IMG/VR virus record: IMGVR_UViG_3300017613_002557 | Coordinates: 1-64,000 of that record | Source of the DNA: a virus | Length of the DNA: 64,000 bases | Direction: 5' to 3' (one strand) | Shown here: in pieces, positions 18,201-60,655 of the stretch | Layout: every line of letters starts with the position of its first letter | Numbering within the stretch: position 1 is the stretch's first letter | Program-made: the position numbers and the translations under genes | The notes under the pieces: generated by a model | Seen by the model: only the letters and a program-made list of their open reading frames with translations | Databases searched by the model: none | What the model was told of the DNA's origin: nothing

Positions 18201-18665
18201 ATGAAACATTTTATTACATACCCAGGCAAGGTACTTTACGAAAGAAACCAAATAGAACCGGGAATGCTTGTGTACGGACTGGTCAAGAAAGACTGGTTTA
18301 AAATGAAGGTTTTACGCATAAGCACCAACACGGCGCTTTGTAGAGATGTCTGTACAGGACAAGGCAGACGCCCAAACTTAAACTGTCATACTCGCGTTGT
18401 ACGTCGTGATCTTGTGGACACTGACAACGTTAAACTGCTTTGGGTTCTCTGGATGCGGTATGGTAATAATAGCCCAAAACGTAATGACAACGCCCACCAT
18501 TTAATCCAGCATATCCTCGAACAAAAAGAAACTGACTTGCAGCAGGAATACAGAACTTATGCCAAGCAGATGGCAGAAGAAAGCCTTAACCGTCTTGGCG
18601 AGGTGTTAAATGTCGTCTGGATTAGGGGCGTGTTGTTACAATCAACAGATGAGGTATCCATATGA
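18201..18665 (+). CDS. hypothetical protein
   Basis: ATG after the hairpin; ATGA overlap with next gene. Confidence 0.6.
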   Translation: MKHFITYPGKVLYERNQIEPGMLVYGLVKKDWFKMKVLRISTNTALCRDVCTGQGRRPNLNCHTRVVRRDLVDTDNVKLLWVLWMRYGNNSPKRNDNAHHLIQHILEQKETDLQQEYRTYAKQMAEESLNRLGEVLNVVWIRGVLLQSTDEVSI

Positions 18666-20203
18666 TTATTTTAGATATGCGTTACATAGCTCATAAAAAG
18701 GAATATGAGCGCAACCATCACGGCGACAACAACCCCCTTGGCATATTTTTTGGCATCAACAAAAAACTTAAGAGGGATGAAGAAACAATGGAGCATGGTG
18801 TGTGTGTGTTTTACTCACTCGATGCCATTACAGCACGGTTTCCCGATATAGATATTTCGGCACATGAGTTTGAATTGGACGAAGAATTAGAGACGATGAG
18901 CGCCGATGTTGAAAATGATGTCTATGATAGTGATGGGCTGCTCGATATATTCCATTCAAATGAGTATGTGTTTGGCGATATTGCCGCATCACTTATTGCC
19001 GCACATCCGGAAGAAAACCATGTTCTCGTAACCTCAAAAATAAGGGCGTTGCAACTCCTTTCTGACAAGGTATTCCTGTTTACGAATGGGAAGTTTTACG
19101 GTATAAACGACGCACACAACGAATATGGCATCACTGAGTTTCGTGATTTCCGCGTCATGACTGGGGATCGAAAATTTCTTCCTGGCATCAAAGGAATTGG
19201 GGAGAAAGGAGCCATCACATTGCTCCAACAGTACAAATCTCTTTATGGAATCTGTGCGAACGTTGCAAAACTTCCAGCCCGGTATGCGAAAATATTTGCG
19301 GATTTGATGCCAGCTACTTTTCATCAAATAATCTTTGACGGCAACTACCATATAGATGTGCCACTTGTCGAAGACACCACAACTGAGCTTGAAAAAACTG
19401 CTGAGATATTCAGGAATGCTATTGATCTTGGGGCTGGCGAGTCTGTGCTGTCCTTTGATCTTGAAACCACAGGGGCAGATATTGCGAAAGACAGAATCGT
19501 CCAACTACATGCCGTACTGATCTACCCAGACCGTACCGAGTCAATCGAGTATCTGATCAACCCAGACATTCCAATAGCCGCAAGAGCTACGGATGTACAC
19601 GGCATTACAGATGATATGGTGTCAGATGCTCCGACATTTCCAGATGTTGCACTTGAGGTTTTGGAGTTTTTTGAACGCGGCACCTATTGGATGGGATACA
19701 ATTCTAATTCGTTTGATATTCAGATCCTCATGAGAGAGCTTGATCAGGCAAAAAAATGGGGCGCATTCAACAACACAGAAAAAAACTACCAGGACGTTGT
19801 TGAGCAGGCAAAACTTATCGACGTAATCAGGCTAGAGCGGCATATCAACTCCCATAAACTCGAATGTGTCTACAAACGCTATTATGGTCGCCCGCTTGAT
19901 GATGCTCACGATGCTGGTGCAGACAATCTCGGAACAATCAAGGTGCTTGCGGCACAAGTAAAGTCGTCACAGCTTCTTTCAAGCGCACTCAGCGAGCTTT
20001 CTGAATTATCACGAGGTAATTCTGTGGATGTTGCCGGAAAGCTGGAACTAGATCCGTTTTCAAATGAAATCGTGTTTGCGTTTGGTCCCAAAAGAGGTGA
20101 GCCGGTCAAAGATTATCCAGGACTTGTCAAGTGGATGGAAGAAAAGGGGTTTCCACGTGATACGGTACGCATTGCAAAAGAATGTTGTAAGGGAAGAACG
20201 TAA
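18662..20203 (+). CDS. fusion of a PolI-type 5'-3' exonuclease-like (H3TH) domain and a DEDDh 3'-5' exonuclease (DnaQ-like)
   Basis: MTGD..LPGIKGIGEKGAITLLQQYKSL (H3TH); FDLETTG, GYNSNSFD, HDAGAD (DEDDh). Confidence 0.85.
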   Translation: MIILDMRYIAHKKEYERNHHGDNNPLGIFFGINKKLKRDEETMEHGVCVFYSLDAITARFPDIDISAHEFELDEELETMSADVENDVYDSDGLLDIFHSNEYVFGDIAASLIAAHPEENHVLVTSKIRALQLLSDKVFLFTNGKFYGINDAHNEYGITEFRDFRVMTGDRKFLPGIKGIGEKGAITLLQQYKSLYGICANVAKLPARYAKIFADLMPATFHQIIFDGNYHIDVPLVEDTTTELEKTAEIFRNAIDLGAGESVLSFDLETTGADIAKDRIVQLHAVLIYPDRTESIEYLINPDIPIAARATDVHGITDDMVSDAPTFPDVALEVLEFFERGTYWMGYNSNSFDIQILMRELDQAKKWGAFNNTEKNYQDVVEQAKLIDVIRLERHINSHKLECVYKRYYGRPLDDAHDAGADNLGTIKVLAAQVKSSQLLSSALSELSELSRGNSVDVAGKLELDPFSNEIVFAFGPKRGEPVKDYPGLVKWMEEKGFPRDTVRIAKECCKGRT

Positions 20204-20205
20204 TA

Positions 20206-20244
20206 TTTTATCACAACTCACTTGTGACAATAATATTGTTATGC
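20206..20244 (+). mobile_element. attI-like recombination site, copy 1
   Basis: TTTTATCACAACTCACTTGTGACAATAATATT-GTTATGC; 32/39 identical to 31220-31258; ends in a GTT core at the head of an attC-containing array. Confidence 0.6.
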
Positions 20245-20397
20245 GTCTACTCCTAAGCGTGTAAACGGTGACTCAGCCAGAGCATGAGCAGGACGAGTGA
20301 AGGCGATACCCGCAGAGCCACAACGCTGCAAGGAACTGTGCCGAAATCGACACCGTGACAAGCCGGGAGAGACCGGCCTTAGAAGTAGACGCATAAC
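20238..20397 (+). ncRNA. structured RNA unit, C4-antisense-RNA-like, closed by a 20-bp stem
   Basis: GTTATGCGTCTACTCCTAAG (20238-20257) pairs with CTTAGAAGTAGACGCATAAC (20378-20397), one mismatch; 3' GTGACA-AGCCGG-GAGAGA-CCGGC hairpin recalled as the C4 RNA 3' signature. Confidence 0.55.
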
Positions 20398-20406
20398 TGA
20401 AGTGAT

Positions 20407-20589
20407 ATGACAGAGAAAGAATATATTTCAGCCGCAAACCGAGTAAAGGTTTCAGCAGCATTAAAAATCTTATGTGATGTTTTGCCAGGTGACGAATACG
20501 GTATTTCTGATATAGAATTATCTGAAATCACAAGCAGGTTGGCGGTAGCGGAAGACAAGCTCTTTCAGTCTTATGAATGCACCGCATAA
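20407..20589 (+). CDS. small cassette-borne hypothetical protein
   Basis: Stop TAA lies inside the attC R'' box (GCA-TAA-C), as is typical of integron cassettes. Confidence 0.7.
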   Translation: MTEKEYISAANRVKVSAALKILCDVLPGDEYGISDIELSEITSRLAVAEDKLFQSYECTA

Positions 20590-20713
20590 CAATCCATTGC
20601 ACAATGAGCGAAACCGCAGTCTGTAGTTTCGACATTGTGCTTTCGCGAACGGCATGGCGGTTCATCCGGGTTCGTTGCCCGTTCTGTTTCGCCATGTGAA
20701 TGGGGCGTTATGA
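20584..20713 (+). mobile_element. attC site (130 bp)
   Basis: R'' GCATAAC ... R' GTTATGA; CCATT(G)CACA pairs with TGTGAATGG and ATG(A)GCGAAAC with GTTTCGCCAT, giving the expected unpaired bases. Confidence 0.9.
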
Positions 20714-20740: not shown

Positions 20741-20938
20741 ATGAAGGAATATATATTTTCAGCAGAAGTTACGGTGTCAGCCATTACACGAGTTATGGCA
20801 AATAGTGAAGAAGAGGGACGTGAAATCGTTGAAGGTCGTAATGTTGAAATCGGCGGTTGGGGTTCTGGTGCTAGTGACAAAGAATCATGAGTTATTAAAG
20901 ACGCTGATGGCGAAGCTCAACACATTCATTGTTGCTGA
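20741..20938 (+). pseudogene. small cassette gene interrupted by an in-frame TGA at 20888-20890
   Basis: AAGGAG RBS, MKEYIFSAEVTVSA...SDKES*VIKDADGEAQHIHCC*; the second stop abuts the recA RBS. Confidence 0.5.
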
Positions 20939-20951
20939 GAGGAGGAAGAGT

Positions 20952-21971
20952 TTGAGCGAGAATACTACCGAACTTCGTAATGAACACACAACAAGAAAAG
21001 AACTAGCAACTGAACTTATACGCCGATTCGGACCGTCCGGATGCGTCCACATGAACGGCGTACCACACCCAGTCATTTCAACTGGCTCACACGTGCTGGA
21101 TCAGATGACGGGGATTTACGGAATCCCGGGCGGAAGAATCACGGAGATTTCCGGTGATTTTTCAACCGGCAAGTCAACAATGGCACTTCAGATTATCCGA
21201 TCGGCGCAAGCATCCGGAGGTGCAACCGCGCTGATCAATGCTGAGTATTGTTTTAGTGAACGATACGCAGCACAACTAGGCGTCAACACAAAAGATCTGG
21301 TTTTGCTTGAACCGGAGACGTTTGAGCAGGCGTTTGACATGGCTTATAAACTTATCGCATCTGGTGGGCTTAGTGTGCTGGTTGTTGATTCATTTCCTGC
21401 TCTTCTGCCAAAAGAAGAACAGATTGGCGATATGGGAGATACTGTTAGTATTCATGGAACACTGGCGAGACAAGGCATCTGTAAAATTCTGGCAGCCGCA
21501 AGTAAGAACATGTGCGCTGTGGTGATCGTCAATCAACTCCGATATAGAAATATCGCCAGATGGAATGAAGAACCAAACTGGGTAGAAATTACGCCGGGAG
21601 GAAACGTACTCAAGTTCTTTACCTCTCTAAAAATTAGTCTTAAAACAATACACCAGTCAGATGAAAAACAAGTAATTAGAGCGGCTGTGACAAAAAACAA
21701 TCTCGGTCGGCCGACTGGCGTAGTGATGACGCAGCTAAATTACGGGCATGGCTTTACGAACGGCGATATATTTATTTGTGATCTATGCAGGCAGCACTAT
21801 CTGCCAAGAAGAACCAGGTCACTATTTTCAGGATACTGTAAATGTGGATCTTGCGGAGAATGGTCTGGCGGACATTCGTATTCAAAAGATTTTCTTTCAG
21901 AAACCAAATTAATATTGAGGGAACAGCTTGACATCCTCCCAGGGCTAAAGCACCTGGGATTCCCGATTTAA
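20952..21971 (+). CDS. recA: RecA-family recombinase (divergent) with C-terminal Cys cluster
   Basis: ISTGS..LD...GIPGGRITEISGDFSTGKST, NAE, VVDS, NQLR, TPGGNVLKFF; GAGGAGG RBS with TTG at 20952. Confidence 0.92.
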   Translation: MSENTTELRNEHTTRKELATELIRRFGPSGCVHMNGVPHPVISTGSHVLDQMTGIYGIPGGRITEISGDFSTGKSTMALQIIRSAQASGGATALINAEYCFSERYAAQLGVNTKDLVLLEPETFEQAFDMAYKLIASGGLSVLVVDSFPALLPKEEQIGDMGDTVSIHGTLARQGICKILAAASKNMCAVVIVNQLRYRNIARWNEEPNWVEITPGGNVLKFFTSLKISLKTIHQSDEKQVIRAAVTKNNLGRPTGVVMTQLNYGHGFTNGDIFICDLCRQHYLPRRTRSLFSGYCKCGSCGEWSGGHSYSKDFLSETKLILREQLDILPGLKHLGFPI

Positions 21972-22050
21972 CGGGTGGTTACTACGCAAGAGGCTGCTCC
22001 CGCAGAATCGAAATTCTTTGGAAGTCTGACGCCTTGACCGTAGATTGACG

Positions 22051-22172
22051 CGGTGTGTCTTCTTCTAATGGCAGGATGCTTTCACTGAGCCATCCAGTGC
22101 TCTGTTAAAATATGGGGCGCTGTGGTGCTGGAGTGGGTAATGTGTGCTTCGATACACACAGACACACAGCCA
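22051..22172 (+). ncRNA. tRNA-like RNA with an oversized anticodon arm
   Basis: Acceptor GTGTGTCT/AGACACAC, D arm TTCT-AATGGC-AGGA, T arm GTGTG-CTTCGATA-CACAC, 3' CCA at 22170-22172; ~60-nt hairpin replaces the anticodon arm. Confidence 0.5.
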
Positions 22173-23167: not shown

Positions 23168-23701
23168 ATGGAGAATATTAAAGAACGTGTTCGAGAGATG
23201 TTGAAACAACGGATTGCCGTGTTGGATGTTGAAACGACCGGGCTGAATGCTCGTTATCATAAAATTGTGGAGATTTCGATCATTGGGAAAGGGAAAGTCT
23301 CTCTTCTGTCCACACTTGTCAACCCCTGTGTGCATATATCTGATGATGTTTCTAAGATTCATGGTATCCGTGATCATATGGTCAGGGATGCCCCTAAAAT
23401 GCACGATCTTCTTCCCAAAATACACGAAATCTTAAAGGAAATTGATATTGTATTCGCATACAACGTGCATTTTGACAAAGGGTTTATAGCTGCGGCTGGT
23501 GTGGATACTGATCTTTGCAAGTGGCAATGTGCGAAGAAACTGTTTCAAGAATATCGGCGTGTATTTATGTGGAGAAAGGGCAATATTTCTCTAGGTAATG
23601 CCTGTAGAGAAACAGGCATTACCTTAACAGTGGCACATCGCGCAGAGAATGATACGGCTGTAACCCTGGAACTTCTTGAGTACATGGCGCAAGACCATTA
23701 G
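23168..23701 (+). CDS. DEDDh 3'-5' exonuclease
   Basis: VLDVETTGL, AYNVHFD, AHRAEND. Confidence 0.92.
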   Translation: MENIKERVREMLKQRIAVLDVETTGLNARYHKIVEISIIGKGKVSLLSTLVNPCVHISDDVSKIHGIRDHMVRDAPKMHDLLPKIHEILKEIDIVFAYNVHFDKGFIAAAGVDTDLCKWQCAKKLFQEYRRVFMWRKGNISLGNACRETGITLTVAHRAENDTAVTLELLEYMAQDH

Positions 23702-25473
23702 TTTTTTCTGTGATCAGACAGAACAATCACATCGGCCCCCGTTTCAGGCGGTGCAATAAGGTCCAGCAGAGATTGTTTTGTCTTGTCTGATGCCGCCCCA
23801 CTGTTACGTAAACGGCTTACGGCACTCCTATTAATCTTAGCTCTCCTGGCTAATTCGTTGCCAGTGATACCACCAGTTTGAAGATACTGCTCAACAAGTT
23901 GCTGAAGTTCAGCTTCTTTGCCGAGTGAAACGTCTGGAACGGGCATAATAGCAGGCGTTTCATGTTGCAACGTTTCTTGCAACACTTCTGGAACGGACGT
24001 GCTGTTCCTACTGTCGTTTCGTGGCGTTTCAGTGTTGCATGATGCTGTTTTTGCAACGGCGTTATATGCGGTTTTTAACACTGTGTTGCACGTTAGTGTT
24101 GGTCCGTTTGCCTGTTTCAACGTTTCTGCGGTCGCCAAAATATCATGTTCTGTAATAAGCGGCATCGACACCTTAGACGGATCCATGTCACACGATGTTG
24201 CCAGTAACGCATCTCCAGGGTTTTTAAGTTCCTTAATAAGTTTTCTTTCGGATGCTGACGCATTTTCCATAAGAAAATCTGCCTGTGATGGTTTAGACTT
24301 ATGCACGAGATATGATTGGATGGACTGCCGGAAAGCCGCACTGTTTTTAAAAAATTTTGCCTGCCATTTATGGCATCCGAAAAAGGCAACAACATTGGCT
24401 TTTCGAGTCTCTTCAGTACAGCGTTCCGCGAACGGGACAACGTAGTCTGAAAATGAGGCTGACTTTCCAATCCTGTTCATCTCATCGAACAGAACAAACA
24501 CGAGTGGCTCAGATGGTATGAGCCCAGATAATCGCGCATCTAGAACCGCATTAAGGGCACGCATTAAATGCGGTAAGTCAAACGGATTGATAATCATCAA
24601 ACGCCCCGTTGCTTCCAGGGGTTTCAAGATGTAACCAAGACCTTCATGGTGATTTTTATGTGGATCAACTACGTAGCCAACACTATCAGGATATTGCAGG
24701 AGCAAGGACGATGCAATATACGCGAACGATAATGTTTTGCCACTTCCCTGCCATCCGGCTATAGCCATTGATTTAAGGTCATTAACACTACGATACTGTG
24801 GCTCATTCTTCGAGTATCCAAAACAGAGTGGGTGTCCAGGTGAAATAACTCCAGATTGCACAAGCTCTGAAAACGGTGGTGTGGCGTGTTCGATGTCAAT
24901 AACACCTTCTGTGATGGCCTCAAGATTGTCGTGTCTGATGTGATTCAATTCACGAATGCGCCCAGTGGATAAGGCACGAAGCTGCTGGACACTGTTTTCA
25001 GCTACGAGGCTATAAATTTCCATAGCTTTCTCCGGAGATTTCGCCTCAATCTTTGCGGCAATCGCCATGTCTTTTGCACTTCCTGGCGAGACGTTTTCCA
25101 GATCCTTATAGCGGACGGGAATTTCTGCTTCTGCAAACTTGAAGATGAACACAGAAAGCCGCCGACTGTAGGAAAACCCGATAGATAGGGCAACAATTGA
25201 TCCAGACACAAAAAGAAGGCTGTAGCACGTATATTTGATCGTTCGCCATATCGGAATACTGTGCTCCTTGTCTTCTATGACGGCGATTTCATAGCGGTAC
25301 TTTGCAGCATCGCGTTCTTCACGCAATTGATCGCTGATGGTAAGTTTTCCTGCCGCCCCAAGTGACGGAAAATCAATAGATTTGATTCCAGAAACTATGA
25401 GAACTATGAAGACAGTCAGAAAAAAACCAATAAAAGTGAATGCTCTTTTGTGAGATGTTTTGTCAGGTGTCAT
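23698..25473 (-). CDS. membrane-anchored FtsK/HerA-superfamily ATPase with C-terminal HTH
   Basis: Two N-terminal TM segments, IAGWQGSGKT Walker A, VVDPH, VLFDEMN Walker B, ITGNELARRAKINRSAVSRLR HTH. Confidence 0.8.
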   Translation of the reverse strand: MTPDKTSHKRAFTFIGFFLTVFIVLIVSGIKSIDFPSLGAAGKLTISDQLREERDAAKYRYEIAVIEDKEHSIPIWRTIKYTCYSLLFVSGSIVALSIGFSYSRRLSVFIFKFAEAEIPVRYKDLENVSPGSAKDMAIAAKIEAKSPEKAMEIYSLVAENSVQQLRALSTGRIRELNHIRHDNLEAITEGVIDIEHATPPFSELVQSGVISPGHPLCFGYSKNEPQYRSVNDLKSMAIAGWQGSGKTLSFAYIASSLLLQYPDSVGYVVDPHKNHHEGLGYILKPLEATGRLMIINPFDLPHLMRALNAVLDARLSGLIPSEPLVFVLFDEMNRIGKSASFSDYVVPFAERCTEETRKANVVAFFGCHKWQAKFFKNSAAFRQSIQSYLVHKSKPSQADFLMENASASERKLIKELKNPGDALLATSCDMDPSKVSMPLITEHDILATAETLKQANGPTLTCNTVLKTAYNAVAKTASCNTETPRNDSRNSTSVPEVLQETLQHETPAIMPVPDVSLGKEAELQQLVEQYLQTGGITGNELARRAKINRSAVSRLRNSGAASDKTKQSLLDLIAPPETGADVIVLSDHRKN

Positions 25474-28329: not shown

Positions 28330-28971
28330 ATGAAACCCTACATCAGACAAAAAGTAAAGAGGGCACGAGAGGTGTTTTTGAGTCGGTTCGACATCGAGCT
28401 TTCAATGAAGATGCACAATCAATTGGTCGGGCAGATTACGAATGGAAACGCTGAACTTGTGGCACATAAAGATAGAAACACCGCCCTGTATAGAATGACG
28501 ATACGTGGGCAAAAGATGGTCGTTGTCTATCATAAAAAGGATCAGTACATTGTGACGGCTCTGTTTGATAAAGAGCAAACCCATACATTAGCCTGGGAAT
28601 GCGGGTTTAAATGCGGACTTGCTCGTCAACAGACGAAAAACCCGCACCCAGAAGACACACAGGAATACTGGGAATTTGAACACGGCAGAATTGCCGGTAG
28701 AAACCGGAGTATTGAGAGCGCGAACATGCCGTCTGCAAAAGAGTACAAAGAAACTCATGGGAAAATCCCGTACGGCACAATTCTTTTGCTGTGTGACGAT
28801 ACCTACATTTTTTCTGAGCGTTCTAATGGGTTTGTAGTTACTGGCAGGACGTCAGGAAATAGTGACAAGGGCATCGACTTGCGTCAAAGAGGTGCGCGGG
28901 TTGCAGGAAGATGTTCAGACATAAATACGTGGCTTCGATATGGCTCAATTTTTCCGCTTGAGGAGGTATAG
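28330..28971 (+). CDS. hypothetical protein
   Basis: GGAG RBS; 213 aa. Confidence 0.65.
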   Translation: MKPYIRQKVKRAREVFLSRFDIELSMKMHNQLVGQITNGNAELVAHKDRNTALYRMTIRGQKMVVVYHKKDQYIVTALFDKEQTHTLAWECGFKCGLARQQTKNPHPEDTQEYWEFEHGRIAGRNRSIESANMPSAKEYKETHGKIPYGTILLLCDDTYIFSERSNGFVVTGRTSGNSDKGIDLRQRGARVAGRCSDINTWLRYGSIFPLEEV

Positions 28972-28972
28972 T

Positions 28973-30733
28973 TTGACTCACAAACGTATTCCTGATACGG
29001 TGCTTACTGAAATCAGACAACAAGCTGACATTGTCGAAGTGATTTCAGAATACGTCGCATTGACGAAGTCCGGGAAAAACTATAAGGGACTGTGCCCATT
29101 CCATCAGGAAAAAACGCCGTCCTTTGTGGTCAGTCCTGAAAAGAAAATTTTTCACTGTTATGGCTGCGGTGTCGGTGGAAATATCTTCTCTTTTCTTGTA
29201 AAGCATGAAAAGTGCTCGTTTCCTGAATCTGTCGGTATGTTGGCAAAACGCGCCGGTATCAACATGTCGGACAATACTGACACACAAGGCACACAAGGCA
29301 CACAGCAGATTGAACACAAAGATCAACTGTATCGGCTACACAAGGATGTTAGCGAGTATTTCACAACACAACTTGTCAGCAATCATAACGCTACTGAGCG
29401 CCTTCGGCAACGAGAGGTCTGCGCGGCAGCGGCACAGTCATTTTCACTAGGATATGCACTCCCGTCATGGGAGAATATACAGAAACACTTTGCCAGCAAA
29501 TACCCGATCGATCTGCTTCTTGAAAGCGGCTTGCTAATACAGCGTAAAAATGGCAATGGATACTATGACCGGTTTCGTGATCGGATCATAATTCCAATCA
29601 CAGATGATCGCGGCCGGGTGATCGCGTTTGGCGGGAGAGCAGTCAATGATGACCTAAAATATGTAAACTCGTCAGAATCACCGATCTTTCAGAAAAACCG
29701 GGTACTGTTTGGACTCAGTCATGCAAAACAAGCCATTCACCAGCATGGGTATGTCGTAATTGTCGAAGGTTATTTTGACATGATTGTGCCCTTTAGTCTG
29801 GGTGTGCAAAATATCGTTGCCACAATGGGAACGGCATTAACACAGCAGCACTTACGTGTACTTCAGCGGTATACCCGCAATGTTGTTCTGATGTTTGATG
29901 GCGATCACGCCGGAATCACTGCTGTGCAGCGTTCTCTCGATCTGTTTCTTGAGTCTGGGTTTACTGTGACGGCTGCTGTTCTACCAAAAGATATTGACCC
30001 AGATAAGATGATTCGAGAAATGGGAGTAGACCAATTTAAGCAATGTATCACACAGGCGCACCCACTGCTCGATTTTATCCGTGGTCATATCATGGCACAA
30101 TACGATCTTTCGCGTACCGATCAACGTGTCGCCTGCGCGAATAAAATCTTGGCGACAATTGTCAAAATTCAAAATATTCCAGAACGCAATACCCAGATCA
30201 GTAAAACTGCCGGGTTGCTCCAAATAACGGATGCGGACAAAGCTCTTCTGGATGAATTTCGTAAAGGGACACGTACCGGCAAGCCACGTGTGACAATTCC
30301 GGTAAAGACAGAGATCGCACTTCCTCCTCTGGAGCGCTTTCTAGTGAAAGCCCTGTTGAAAGACAAACAGCTTATTAAATATGTCAAACATGTTGGGCCA
30401 GCTACTTTTTCGCACACAATCACACGTAAAGTAATTGAGGTGTTGCTGTTTAACGAAACATCTGAGTGCGAGTCACGTGTTTTAGACCACTTTCACACAG
30501 CAGACTACCAATCATACCTCACAGAACTGTTTCTGCAAGTAGATGAGGTTGTGGACCCAGAGACGACAGTCAGAGATTGTTTGAACAGACTACAACAACA
30601 GACAGCCAGGAAACGTGCATGTAAGGACACATTGCGGCTGCAAGAACTACAAGAGCAAACAGACAGTGTCGAATTCGCTGCGCTTATCCAGCGCAAAAAT
30701 AAACAACTTCAGGAAAAGCGACATCAAAAATAG
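28973..30733 (+). CDS. dnaG: DNA primase DnaG (full-length, cellular type)
   Basis: CPFHQEKTPSF..FHCYGC zinc finger, DRFRDRII, FGGR, KYVNS, VEGYFD, FDGD.AG, DPD; GAGGAGG with TTG 28973. Confidence 0.97.
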   Translation: MTHKRIPDTVLTEIRQQADIVEVISEYVALTKSGKNYKGLCPFHQEKTPSFVVSPEKKIFHCYGCGVGGNIFSFLVKHEKCSFPESVGMLAKRAGINMSDNTDTQGTQGTQQIEHKDQLYRLHKDVSEYFTTQLVSNHNATERLRQREVCAAAAQSFSLGYALPSWENIQKHFASKYPIDLLLESGLLIQRKNGNGYYDRFRDRIIIPITDDRGRVIAFGGRAVNDDLKYVNSSESPIFQKNRVLFGLSHAKQAIHQHGYVVIVEGYFDMIVPFSLGVQNIVATMGTALTQQHLRVLQRYTRNVVLMFDGDHAGITAVQRSLDLFLESGFTVTAAVLPKDIDPDKMIREMGVDQFKQCITQAHPLLDFIRGHIMAQYDLSRTDQRVACANKILATIVKIQNIPERNTQISKTAGLLQITDADKALLDEFRKGTRTGKPRVTIPVKTEIALPPLERFLVKALLKDKQLIKYVKHVGPATFSHTITRKVIEVLLFNETSECESRVLDHFHTADYQSYLTELFLQVDEVVDPETTVRDCLNRLQQQTARKRACKDTLRLQELQEQTDSVEFAALIQRKNKQLQEKRHQK

Positions 30734-30745
30734 GAGCGTACGCCG

Positions 30746-30943
30746 ATGTTATCAAACGAGCAAGTTACCAAAATTCAGGCTGCTATTCAGGCTATTGAGA
30801 CAGCAGAAGAAGTTAGTATTTGTCATACTTTTCTGACCGATGCAAAAATACTGTTACAAGAAGTGCTTGGCGAAGATCAGTCTGATCAATATCTTGACAT
30901 TGAGGCTAAAATATTCGATGAAAGCGATTTTGACGAGGGCTAA
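30746..30943 (+). CDS. small acidic protein
   Basis: AGGAG RBS. Confidence 0.6.
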   Translation: MLSNEQVTKIQAAIQAIETAEEVSICHTFLTDAKILLQEVLGEDQSDQYLDIEAKIFDESDFDEG

Positions 30944-30947
30944 ATAT

Positions 30948-31184
30948 ATGACAAACGAACAAAAGTTACACCTTGCTCTTGCAACTTTACGAGGTATCGT
31001 AGACTATGAAAGATCGCTAAAAGACACTCCAGGATTCGATGGTGCTGTATGGGTAATGTCATATACAGGACTAAACATGTGTGGATATTTGGACAAAGAT
31101 TTTGGCGATCTTCATGCATACCCAACAGAGAAAGAGAACCCTCAAAGGTGGGTAGCAGAAAGACAACAATGTCATGCAAAATAG
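30948..31184 (+). CDS. hypothetical protein
   Basis: GAGG RBS, ATG 30948. Confidence 0.55.
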   Translation: MTNEQKLHLALATLRGIVDYERSLKDTPGFDGAVWVMSYTGLNMCGYLDKDFGDLHAYPTEKENPQRWVAERQQCHAK

Positions 31185-31219
31185 CACTGCCGGTATTTAA
31201 ATGGCACACAAGACGTGAT

Positions 31220-31258
31220 TTTTATCACGAGTAAGTCGTGACAATTATATTGTTATAC
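31220..31258 (+). mobile_element. attI-like recombination site, copy 2
   Basis: TTTTATCACGAGTAAGTCGTGACAATTATATT-GTTATAC; GTTATACGCC matches the far cassette end GGCGCATAAC (31891-31900). Confidence 0.6.
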
Positions 31259-31452
31259 GCCTTGCGGCAGCGCAGTTCCTTGAAAAAAAAGTTTCTCCTT
31301 GTTTTCCTGTTATACAGGCGAAATCAGACACGGGGCAAAAATGTTTCATTTATTTTGTTTAATCTACTTGACAAATTAAACAAAAAGACTTATTGTGTAT
31401 ATTACAAGACGGAAACAAGGTAAAACAAACAATCAAAACAAGGAGAAAAATC

Positions 31453-31683
31453 ATGAGAGATTACACACAAGAAGAAGCTGACCGGAAAGAATTAGTTGCA
31501 ATGAATCAGGCTATTGAAGACGCCTCGCAAGGTATGAGCTACGAAGAAATGATGAAAGATCCAAAGGTTGTGGTATTAATCCAAAAACGTGATGACTTCA
31601 AAGAACAAATCGAGGCGATGGCACAGGAAGAACTCGACGAATACAAAAAAGAAAATCCTTTTTTCAGTGAGTTATTAGCATGA
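31453..31683 (+). CDS. small acidic protein, gene 1 of a promoter-bearing cassette
   Basis: TTGACA at 31368 and AAGGAG RBS upstream; ATGA overlap with gene 2. Confidence 0.7.
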   Translation: MRDYTQEEADRKELVAMNQAIEDASQGMSYEEMMKDPKVVVLIQKRDDFKEQIEAMAQEELDEYKKENPFFSELLA

Positions 31684-31889
31684 AGAAAGAAACGAGAGGT
31701 GGCGCAGGCAGGAATCAAGGCTTGCGCCCCGGAACCTATAAAAACGCACAGAAGCCGCCGGAATTTAAGCATAGTATCAAAAAGCAAGTAAGCTACACGC
31801 CGGAACAGTGGCAGCGTGTAGAGGCAAAAATGAAAGAATACGGCATAAAGAAATTTAGCGATTATGCCAGAATGTTAACTTTATCATAG
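31680..31889 (+). CDS. small DNA-binding protein (RGG..GR N-terminus, RHH-like C-terminus)
   Basis: RGGAGRNQGLRP...KKQVSYTPEQWQRVEAKMKEYGIKKFSDYAR. Confidence 0.7.
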   Translation: MKKETRGGAGRNQGLRPGTYKNAQKPPEFKHSIKKQVSYTPEQWQRVEAKMKEYGIKKFSDYARMLTLS

Positions 31890-31893
31890 CGGC

Positions 31894-31955
31894 GCATAAC
31901 AAAAAATTGTACGCGACCGGAAAAAGCGCCCGGCGCGTAAATTTCGCCGTTATGC
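31894..31955 (+). mobile_element. attC site (62 bp)
   Basis: GCATAAC...GTTATGC; AAATT(G)TACGCG(A)CCGG pairs with CCGGCGCGTAAATTT with two extrahelical bases. Confidence 0.93.
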
Positions 31956-31977
31956 AACTTATGTTTGGAGGTAACGC

Positions 31978-32718
31978 ATGAAAATAGAACAACATATTTT
32001 AGATATAATCGAAGAAGGCAAAACAGACGGGAATTTATTTTTTCTGCCAAATCGTCAGCTTGACCGCAAGGTTTACCAGGATGTAAACAAGGTTCTTGGG
32101 TGTCTCGGAGGAAAGTGGAATCGGAAATTTAAGGCCCATGTGTTTGAGTCTGATATTTCAGGCGCTATTGATGATGTACTTTTAACCGGCGAAGTTATTA
32201 GCAAGAAACAAGAGTTTCAGTTTTTTGAAACGCCGGAACCTATTGTCAACCAACTTATCGAATTAGCAGAAATTGAAGTAGGGCATAAATGTCTTGAACC
32301 TTCTGCCGGTCATGGGAATATCGCTGAAGCATTGCGCGAAATTGTTGGCGATAACGTGACGTGTGTTGAAATGATGCCGGAAAATGTTGCTGTCCTTGTA
32401 AGCAAAGGTTTTCAGGTGCATGAAGGTGACTTTTTGCAGTATCTTTCCGGCGTAGGTTATGACAGAATTATCATGAATCCTCCATTCACACGACAACAGG
32501 ACATCGCCCATGTCGAAAAAGCTTTAATGCATCTGAAGGATGGCAGTATTCTTGTTTCTGTGATGTCTGTCGGCGTAACGTTTCGACATGACAAAAAGAC
32601 AACTGACTTTTGGTATAAACTTAGTGGATACGATTATGAGATTATTGAGTTGCCAATAGGAGCGTTTAAGGTTTCCGGTACTATGGTCAATGCAATAATC
32701 TTGAAGGTCGTTGCATAA
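31978..32718 (+). CDS. cassette-borne amino (N6-adenine-type) DNA methyltransferase-like protein
   Basis: FFETP, LEPSAGHG (motif I), IMNPPF (motif IV), AFKVSGT.V; stop inside attC R''. Confidence 0.9.
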   Translation: MKIEQHILDIIEEGKTDGNLFFLPNRQLDRKVYQDVNKVLGCLGGKWNRKFKAHVFESDISGAIDDVLLTGEVISKKQEFQFFETPEPIVNQLIELAEIEVGHKCLEPSAGHGNIAEALREIVGDNVTCVEMMPENVAVLVSKGFQVHEGDFLQYLSGVGYDRIIMNPPFTRQQDIAHVEKALMHLKDGSILVSVMSVGVTFRHDKKTTDFWYKLSGYDYEIIELPIGAFKVSGTMVNAIILKVVA

Positions 32719-32821
32719 CAACCGCTTGCAGCCAGATTTGACCGCGTGGGTTCAAATCTGGCTGCTAAATTACAAGCTTCGGTGGCGCGTGGGTTCAAAC
32801 TGCTGAAGCGGAACGTTAGTA
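32713..32821 (+). mobile_element. attC site (109 bp)
   Basis: GCATAAC...GTTAGTA; CCGCTT(G)CAGC(C)AG(A)TTTGA pairs with TCAAACTGCTGAAGCGG. Confidence 0.88.
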
Positions 32822-32843
32822 GTGCTTGAGAGGGATAATAATT

Positions 32844-33134
32844 ATGGACGGGAAAGAGATGTGTGCATTATTGAAACAGGAGGCACAAAAAGGAAATATT
32901 TGTTTTTTCGCTACACCTGATGAACTTGTAAAAGTGAACCTTGATGAGTTTATCAGGCAACCAGCAGAAGGTATGCTGTATGATTTGAATAGAAACAAAA
33001 TCACCGTATTACATTTCATCACTCAAGGGAACATGAAATGGGTGAATAATTATGCAGTGGCATTAGTGATAGAAAAATTAAGAGAGGTTGTTGGCCGTAC
33101 TGCTAACAAAACATTGGAAACGACACAGGGCTGA
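32844..33134 (+). CDS. cassette-borne hypothetical protein
   Basis: GAGAGGG RBS; cassette start GTTAGTAGTGC matches end GTACTGCTAAC (33097-33107) at 9 of 11 positions. Confidence 0.7.
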   Translation: MDGKEMCALLKQEAQKGNICFFATPDELVKVNLDEFIRQPAEGMLYDLNRNKITVLHFITQGNMKWVNNYAVALVIEKLREVVGRTANKTLETTQG

Positions 33135-33135: not shown

Positions 33136-33455
33136 CGGTGAACTTGCGGAAGCATTTAAAAATTAGATCCTCTGTTGAGCCGCCTTTTAAAATATGAAAT
33201 ATTTTTCTGATGATGAAATGTTGAAGAAAAGTCAGTTTTTTGCTTTTGCCTGCATTGGTGGGATGAAAGAAGGTTTTGACTATTCAGAGACGAAGGCGCT
33301 TTGTAAATATTGGGGCGAACAACGGCGAAAAAATCACTATCATGGTGGGTTTTTTAAGGAAGTTTCAGGTCAGCAGGCGTTGCGTCTACAGCGCCAGACT
33401 AGCAAAAGTTAGCAAATGACTGCTGTGACGCGCATCGCTTGAGAGGTGAAATAGC

Positions 33456-60198: not shown

Positions 60199-60588
60199 TT
60201 ATTCTGCGAGTGTACTGAGAATTGTACGTGCCCCATCTGTGAGTCCGTACAACGTGGCTTCGTGACTACTAACCATTGACAAGCATAACTTTTTCGTTGT
60301 GTATGGACGGGTAAAAATCTTTACACGGACACAGATAACGCCATCATTATATGCTTGTGTGTTGATCTGAATTGACGAGACGGTGTAATAAACACCTCTG
60401 TCTTTCAGGATGACTTCTTTTTCCGGCAGGTAGTTGAGTCTGCTATTGATTTCATCCATATTTAACGTTTTGGCGTGAAGGTGTTTGACTGAAATGTCAT
60501 ACACACTAACCGCATGAACGGGAGTATATTCGTAGTGGTTGCCAGAAATGACGTGTTGTGTGGCGAGAACTGTGTTATGTTGTGACAT
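60199..60588 (-). CDS. hypothetical protein, first gene of the leftward operon
   Basis: AAGGAGG RBS at ATG 60588; promoter upstream. Confidence 0.7.
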   Translation of the reverse strand: MSQHNTVLATQHVISGNHYEYTPVHAVSVYDISVKHLHAKTLNMDEINSRLNYLPEKEVILKDRGVYYTVSSIQINTQAYNDGVICVRVKIFTRPYTTKKLCLSMVSSHEATLYGLTDGARTILSTLAE

Positions 60589-60655
60589 GGTGTAAACCTC
60601 CTTATAGTAGGAAAAGCGGTTAGTGTTGTGGAAATGGTTTTCTAAATCCAAAAAG

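Follow-up and report, generated by a model that had tools for sequence, protein, structure and literature searches.

Where attC sites cluster in the absence of an integrase, decay of an integron or stray insertion at secondary sites is the usual explanation. Such clusters lacking an integron integrase, termed CALINs, were described in phage genomes (Qi et al. 2023, PMC9892861), among them clusters with methyltransferase cassettes and with a short GTT-containing palindrome at one boundary (PMC9892861). The attG hotspots, which are used as secondary targets, need only 9+9 nt around the central cut and have mutually unrelated sequences (Loot et al., bioRxiv 10.1101/2022.09.11.507474); they can be nearly as efficient as attI and were proposed as the origin of attI sites (bioRxiv 10.1101/2022.09.11.507474). 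Beyond integrons, the PeSL (promoter-early stem-loop) elements of T4-type phages are represented by strong promoters present in many copies in hyperplastic regions, combined with effective terminators and acting by homologous recombination (Arbiol et al. 2010, PMC2839356).

The phage contig analyzed here resembles the phage CALINs in the presence of attC-bounded cassettes, including a cassette with an orphan DNA methyltransferase, in the absence of an integrase and in the presence of a short palindrome with GTT at the boundary of a cluster. It differs from them in that the same ~40 bp are found at the head of every array, one of which is located on unrelated DNA, whereas no conserved head site repeated in separate arrays is reported in PMC9892861. 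Phage attC clusters as such are already published (2023). This site of roughly 40 bp is probably a docking point for cassette capture.

The window, 64 kb in length, is the first part of a 90,004-bp IMG/VR phage contig, which is estimated to represent ~70% of the genome. Genes for the replication and recombination proteins DnaB, DnaG primase, a RecA-like protein and two RNase_T-type exonucleases were found in the window, together with genes for a ParB-HTH protein, a gpA-type terminase and a capsid protein. Homologues of the exonuclease, primase and DnaB with more than 47% identity were not found in IMG/VR, GenBank phages or a set of 5.8 billion proteins; an identical exonuclease and DnaB are encoded by one second contig. 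For a putative 613-aa protein, there were zero phage matches. Named relatives of DnaB are scattered among Nitrospirota, Tectomicrobia and Thermodesulfobacteriota, with 36–40% identity, and no host is assignable. Relatives with an empty or otherwise filled site were not found; the distant loci are without synteny.

The two sites of the contig, S1 and S2 (Table 1), are located on the plus strand, each just downstream of a plus-strand backbone gene. Analysis of the letters without database searches (the sequence-only reading) had described them as twins with 32 of 39 positions identical, and this was confirmed; the degenerate motif had 0 matches in 100 shuffles. The search across the phage that had been proposed in the same reading, performed with a pattern and with an nhmmer profile built from all known copies (next match E = 2), found only S1 and S2 in the 90,004 bp, both at array heads. 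Each site carries two dyads, TCACRA-N5-TYGTGA (dyad A) followed by ACAAT-N3-ATTGT (dyad B), the right arm of the latter overlapping the GT of the GTT core. Dyad A is present as it had been described, including the double change of A-T to G-C (TCACAA/TTGTGA versus TCACGA/TCGTGA). The GTTATRC end of both sites coincides with the first base of an attC-bounded cassette array. Two other descriptions hold in part. The flanks are unrelated over most of their length, but a weak leftward extension of 8–12 nt (AAGAACGTAATA versus AAGACGTGAT) is shared; in S1, it contains the stop codon of the exonuclease gene and an AAC able to pair with the core GTT. Strong identity does stop at the core, at GTTAT, but a weaker pattern, GTTATRYGYC, runs to +10, as is expected from the extended R' box of this attC family.

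Table 1. Positions of the sites, their parts, the neighboring backbone genes and the cassettes in the window
Feature	Position	Strand	Description
513-aa exonuclease	18662..20203	+	5'-3' exonuclease SAM fold and RNase_T domain; backbone gene upstream of S1
Left extension of S1	20196..20205	+	AACGTAATA region; weakly conserved
S1, 39 bp	20206..20244	+	TTTTATCACAACTCACTTGTGACAATAATATTGTTATGC; begins 3 nt past the exonuclease stop codon
Dyad A of S1	20211..20227	+	TCACAA-N5-TTGTGA
Dyad B of S1	20227..20239	+	ACAATAATATTGT; invariant except centre; right arm overlaps GT of the crossover GTT
Core of S1	20238..20244	+	GTTATGC; putative crossover between G20238 and T20239
Array 1, one cassette	20239..20707	+	160-nt structured element (20238-20397), 60-aa ORF (20407-20589), attC (20584-20713)
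attC 1.1, 130 nt	20584..20713	+	GCATAAC...GTTATGA; extra G on left arm
DnaG primase gene	28940-30733		Upstream of the 114-aa ORF
114-aa ORF	30840..31184	+	Backbone gene upstream of S2 and downstream of DnaG primase; no family match
Left extension of S2	31209..31219	+	AAGACGTGAT; weakly conserved
S2, 39 bp	31220..31258	+	TTTTATCACGAGTAAGTCGTGACAATTATATTGTTATAC; begins 36 nt past the stop codon of the 114-aa ORF
Dyad A of S2	31225..31241	+	TCACGA-N5-TCGTGA
Dyad B of S2	31241..31253	+	ACAATTATATTGT
Core of S2	31252..31258	+	GTTATAC; putative crossover between G31252 and T31253
Cassette 2.1 of array 2	31253..31949	+	Two overlapping small ORFs (31453-31683, 31680-31889); attC 31894-31955 at end
attC 2.1, 62 nt	31894..31955	+	GCATAAC...GTTATGC; extra G and A on left arm
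Cassette 2.2	31950..32815	+	Orphan DNA methyltransferase (31978-32718); attC 2.2, 109 nt, 32713-32821
Cassette 2.3	32816..33107	+	96-aa ORF (32844-33134); only an R''-type half-site (33097-33107) left, no foldable attC after it

A pattern fixing only 22 positions of the site, and including nothing on attC, was run over 241 million metagenome records (JGI contigs). One match was found, namely, an unrelated 1,054-bp contig, L023, with a third copy of the site (S3, TTTTATCACGAATAGATAGTGACAATAATATTGTTATGT) at positions 12–50. Every pair among the three copies is 32/39 identical, and S3 matches S1 or S2 at 12 of the 17 positions left free by the pattern. Two attC cassettes, with attC sites of 128 and 96 nt, follow S3 directly, and neither of them resembles anything in the phage contig. 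The site accordingly heads three arrays with unrelated contents, and in all three the first cassette is joined at the same base, G|TT, of the cores GTTATGC, GTTATAC and GTTATGT. The contig L023 begins 11 bp ahead of the site, as would be the case if the assembly had broken at a repeat. The first ORF, with its start 24 nt past the site, has its own ribosome-binding site and no visible promoter; an HNH-like histidine/cysteine motif, but no Pfam match, was found in the 158-aa protein of the second cassette.

Common occurrence of the motif without downstream attC cassettes had been named beforehand as the observation that would speak against a dedicated site. Zero cassette-free copies were found in IMG/VR, JGI metagenome contigs, PLSDB plasmids, GenBank phages and the genomes of 185,579 bacterial and archaeal species, each represented by one genome. 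The blastn search of the site against 72,556 plasmids, mobile integrons included, and 50,697 phage records returned short chance matches only. Matches in IMG/VR to GTGACAATWATATTGTTAT, to TTTTATCAC-N9-GTGACAAT and to the gapped pattern, as well as matches of the gapped pattern in GTDB genomes, are located inside genes and were rejected as chance.

Array 2 includes at least three cassettes, the last attC being truncated to its left core; accordingly, its right boundary did not arise from a clean site-specific event. The attC sites of the phage and of L023 have AAC/GTT cores and form imperfect hairpins of 62–130 nt, with the genes oriented towards attC. In the phage, the cores are represented by GCATAAC ... 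GTTATGM or GTTAGTA, and the gene ahead of each attC extends into its left core. Every attC of both contigs has additional bases on the left (L'') arm (G, or G and A), a canonical attC trait, and the polarity of the sites is canonical. The set of features by which gene cassettes and CALINs are defined, namely, at least two attC sites, AAC...GTT cores, imperfect hairpins within 57–141 nt, extra L'' bases and no integrase nearby, was found as a whole. When the 90 kb were scanned on both strands for hairpins closed by TAAC...GTTA, only attC 1.1, 2.1 and 2.2 were well above background; all three are located in site-headed arrays, which counts in favor of an attI-like role of the site. The 5' end of a cassette is complementary to its own R'' flank at 10 of 10 positions in cassette 2.2 and in the second cassette of L023; complementarity to the left-core flank is 9/11 for cassette 2.3 and 8–9 of 9–10 for the first cassettes. 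Cassettes that circularise and then re-insert through exchange at G|TT would be expected to show such complementarity, and the crossover was placed there on this basis. Homologues of the methyltransferase of cassette 2.2, 43–47% identical, are present in two other viral contigs, in neither case inside attC cassettes.

Several additional elements were observed in the arrays. Within window positions 31368–31889, cassette 2.1 contains its own good sigma-70-like promoter (TTGACA-17-TATTGT, 10/12), and its overlapping ORFs encode 76 aa and 69 aa, the second with a weak NikA/RHH-like match; judged from these features, the layout is that of a putative toxin–antitoxin-type cassette. The 160-nt gene-less element located directly behind S1 is closed by a stem of ~20 bp, the outer 7 bp of which are the cassette-type cores GTTATGC and GCATAAC; folded as RNA, it has −63.5 kcal/mol and z = −5.07. 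Rfam has nothing at gathering scores in the window and nothing at E <= 5 around S1, and chance-level matches only around array 2; a C4-like reading of the element was not backed, as it has no Rfam match even at E <= 5. The half-sites GCATAAC (20391–20397) and TGCTAAC (33101–33107) are represented by the left core only, with no foldable attC behind them, and each is followed by a small ORF (20407–20589 and 33194–33412, respectively). GTTAGCA at 33410–33416 is the exact complement of 33101–33107, ~300 nt upstream. Deletions, or ORFs nested within a disrupted attC, may explain these half-sites. The RecA gene was considered as a cassette and rejected: the hairpin after it (21966–22110) does not exceed background in energy, and its ends lack complementarity to the cassette-type 5' end. 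The window positions 60504–60625 contain a perfect 10-bp inverted repeat, CACTAACCGC / GCGGTTAGTG, around 102 nt that hold a minus-strand ribosome-binding site and start codon; it has TAAC/GTTA cores but weak inner pairing and was not counted as attC.

The double change in dyad A had been read as a compensatory change in a covarying inverted repeat. This covariation is represented by one base pair in two sequences, and in the third copy the same pair is broken (G:A), so that the variable pair is AU in one copy, GC in one and unpaired in one; 174 of 500 column shuffles reach the observed score. The hairpin of the site is weak (−2 to −5 kcal/mol as DNA) and is not the preferred fold of S3. Selection for a hairpin via covariation is, on the three aligned copies, not supported. 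Nine columns vary across the copies, six of them within the 9-bp centre of dyad A (P = 0.0017 for that window, ~0.05 after scanning all windows). With the variation clustered in this centre, the flanking blocks look constrained: the invariant parts are TTTTATCAC and GTGACAAT-W-ATATTGTTAT, separated by the variable 9 bp, and the outer arms of dyad A, TTATCAC/GTGACAA, are the same in 3 of 3 copies. The two invariant blocks are putative binding sites of a recombinase or an accessory protein, and do not appear to be the arms of a selected hairpin. The sequence-only reading that the site is a selected landing pad and not an attG-type target is supported by the three unrelated arrays headed by it and by the lack of cassette-free copies in the collections searched; the covariation argument is not supported.

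The site resembles attI in its position at the head of the array, in the joining of cassettes at G|TT of a GTT-type core, in the single orientation of all cassettes and in the conservation of tens of base pairs on the side away from the cassettes; like attI, it would be used in the double-stranded form. It differs from attI in several respects. No intI gene is present beside S1 or S2, the upstream genes being those for the exonuclease and the 114-aa ORF on the same strand, and the site occurs twice in one genome, inside the block of phage replication genes. The core is GTTATRY versus GTTRRRY of attI, a departure at one RRR position; an inverted copy of the GTTAT core (L box) is absent 5–8 bp left of GTT, and the site shows no sequence similarity to any attI borne by the 72,556 plasmids searched. 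In attI, the integrase is bound by an R box at the crossover, an inverted L box a few base pairs leftward and accessory repeats beyond it, and the neighboring intI gene is usually divergent and accompanied by a cassette promoter. With attG, the site shares the location on double-stranded DNA outside an integron and G-W-T at the cut, but all of its conservation is on the left side of the crossover, over 32 bp or more in all three copies. One-sided conservation of at least 32 bp, versus the 9+9 nt of attG hotspots, fits the layout of attI. The PeSL element is the nearest non-integron analogue: it is likewise a short repeated motif with promoter-like and stem-loop parts that borders accessory phage genes where genes come and go. 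Unlike it, the site is present only twice in the 90 kb, is joined precisely at G|TT to cassettes with attC hairpins, and has a weak promoter match (9/12, in S2 only) and a stem of 6 bp that is A/T-rich, weak and unconserved.

Four observations, namely, that the site is found at array heads only, that the junction is fixed, that all six attC sites have one orientation relative to it and that its conservation is one-sided, suggest, with a confidence evenly divided between acceptance and doubt, that the ~40-bp element (~50 bp with the left extension) is the conserved array-proximal arm of an attI-like primary double-stranded recombination site, the enzyme for which would be supplied in trans. The enzyme would be a tyrosine recombinase of the integron type, with its gene either in the host or in the ~30% of the phage that is not sequenced, and it would insert circular attC-bearing cassettes at the G|TT of GTTAT. 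The recombinase would pair the folded bottom strand of the attC of the circular cassette with the double-stranded site, and strand exchange at ATATTG|TT would put the cassette directly behind the conserved arm. Transcription of the cassettes may also be aided by the site, given its orientation towards them and its weak sigma-70-like match. Strict membership among attI sites is unproven, since an integrase is absent from the available sequence. Mobility at the site is what we infer from three copies, related phages with an empty or differently filled site being absent from the collections. A further suggestion, which is tentative, is that the phage keeps several private attI-type sites in its replication gene block without an integrase, and that a recombinase acting in trans could insert and exchange cassettes, anti-restriction methyltransferases for example, at positions that are defined and safe for expression.

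Tyrosine recombinase genes (PF00589, E <= 1, six frames) were not detected in the 90-kb contig, i.e., in ~70% of the genome, while the control genomes all matched; the integrase would therefore be that of the host or be encoded in the missing 30% of the phage. Genes for rve and Y1 transposases are also absent from the 90 kb. The sole recombinase of the contig is a 188-aa protein (G000 74576-75142) with an N-terminal MerR-type HTH (MerR/HTH_17) followed by a Resolvase catalytic domain. This gene corresponds to L029:10576-11142, and its domain order is as in IS607-type serine transposases; a 347-aa ORF without a Pfam match overlaps it downstream.

Instead of being an attI-like arm, the site with 8–12 nt of its left flank could be a short attC-like hairpin of 49–52 nt, located where a resident phage gene ends (3'); it would recombine in the form of a folded single strand, and the arrays would have grown behind it by attC x attC insertion. 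In S1, positions 20193–20244 do fold into a 52-nt structure of AAC/GTT, AATATT/AATATT and TCACAA/TTGTGA with a 2-nt bulge on the left arm (z = −2.4, top strand; z = −3.7, bottom strand). In all three copies, AAC or GAC is found at a similar leftward distance; the exonuclease stop codon lies just past the AAC, as stop codons do in cassettes; and one phage attC cluster described previously is bordered by a short GTT-containing palindrome (Qi et al. 2023, PMC9892861). Such an origin is nevertheless unlikely: the left arm is poorly conserved and the right arm invariant, unlike homologous hairpins, S2 prefers other folds, the fold of S3 is no better than shuffled sequence (z −0.6 and −1.3), the single varying stem pair does not stay paired, and a left core of the RYYYAAC type is absent. 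Two invariant blocks separated by a free spacer, as here, are typically seen with a dimeric DNA-binding protein, and it can be supposed that the site is primarily a promoter or operator, with dyads for a helix-turn-helix dimer, whose A/T-rich GTT serves as a secondary attG-type target; insertions would survive there because cassettes need a promoter. A sigma-70-like match (TTATCA-17/18-TAATAT/TATATT, 9/12) is directed into the cassettes, the first ORF of L023, which has no visible promoter, lies close behind the site, and attG hotspots can reach attI-like frequencies, with inserted cassettes expressed only near promoters (bioRxiv 10.1101/2022.09.11.507474). However, the match is mediocre and present in S2 only, S1 not being called on the plus strand; both copies in the 90 kb are occupied by arrays, while ordinary genes would be expected to carry this class of element too; and three independent fillings of a rare sequence with no empty copy go beyond what the hotspot model predicts. 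We regard this origin as distinctly unlikely.

It is improbable that the site is a passenger, i.e., the right part of the attI of a bacterial integron, captured together with its array in an illegitimate or homologous recombination event. Pieces of chromosomal integrons do occur in phages (PMC9892861), stretches of ~20 nt to the left of the conserved block differ among the copies, and the right end of array 2 is ragged. Random capture would not be expected to leave a left limit of homology common to three copies within a few bases, though, and neither an integrase remnant beside any copy nor the motif itself in the plasmids or the 185,579 species genomes was detected. As for the small serine recombinase of the phage, its presence as the one recombinase in the contig and the inverted 7-bp arms of dyad A would allow the site to be its target, or that of another DNA-binding protein, with the position at array heads incidental. 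This is highly improbable, given that the gene is located 43 kb away with no site-like sequence near it, that the centre of the dyad is variable and of odd length, and that GTT-core junctions with attC hairpins are the signature of integron-type tyrosine recombination. A nut- or put-like antitermination site, a terminator, DnaA, LexA and CRP boxes, and IHF and Xer/dif-like sites were also considered and dropped, as the loop and stem are not conserved and no match to their consensus sequences was seen by eye.

If the attI-like interpretation is true, a recurrent head site in front of independent arrays would mean that cassette capture in phages is targeted and selected, and that a site of the attI type can function and persist at a great distance from integrase genes. 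On the tentative suggestion made above, the phage would carry a distributed integron platform without an integrase, which would tie the cassette pools of hosts directly to phage genomes. This raises the questions of which integrase serves phage-borne arrays and whether phages draw on host cassette pools; the sequence of the site is a handle for finding further platforms of this type.

Two genes are located between the arrays. At window positions 20741–21971, the RecA-like ORF of 388 aa has no ATG start before the RecA domain, the first start being GTG at 20805. A strong ribosome-binding site and an ATG at 20741 open a frame of 49 aa only, which ends at 20890 and is out of frame with the RecA-like ORF; a frameshift, a leader ORF or an error of sequencing could account for this. 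The sole minus-strand gene between both arrays (window positions 23698–25473) encodes a 591-aa protein with weak matches to AAA_22 and a C-terminal HTH, and the HTH part also matches a PHROG annotated as 'DNA transposition protein'.
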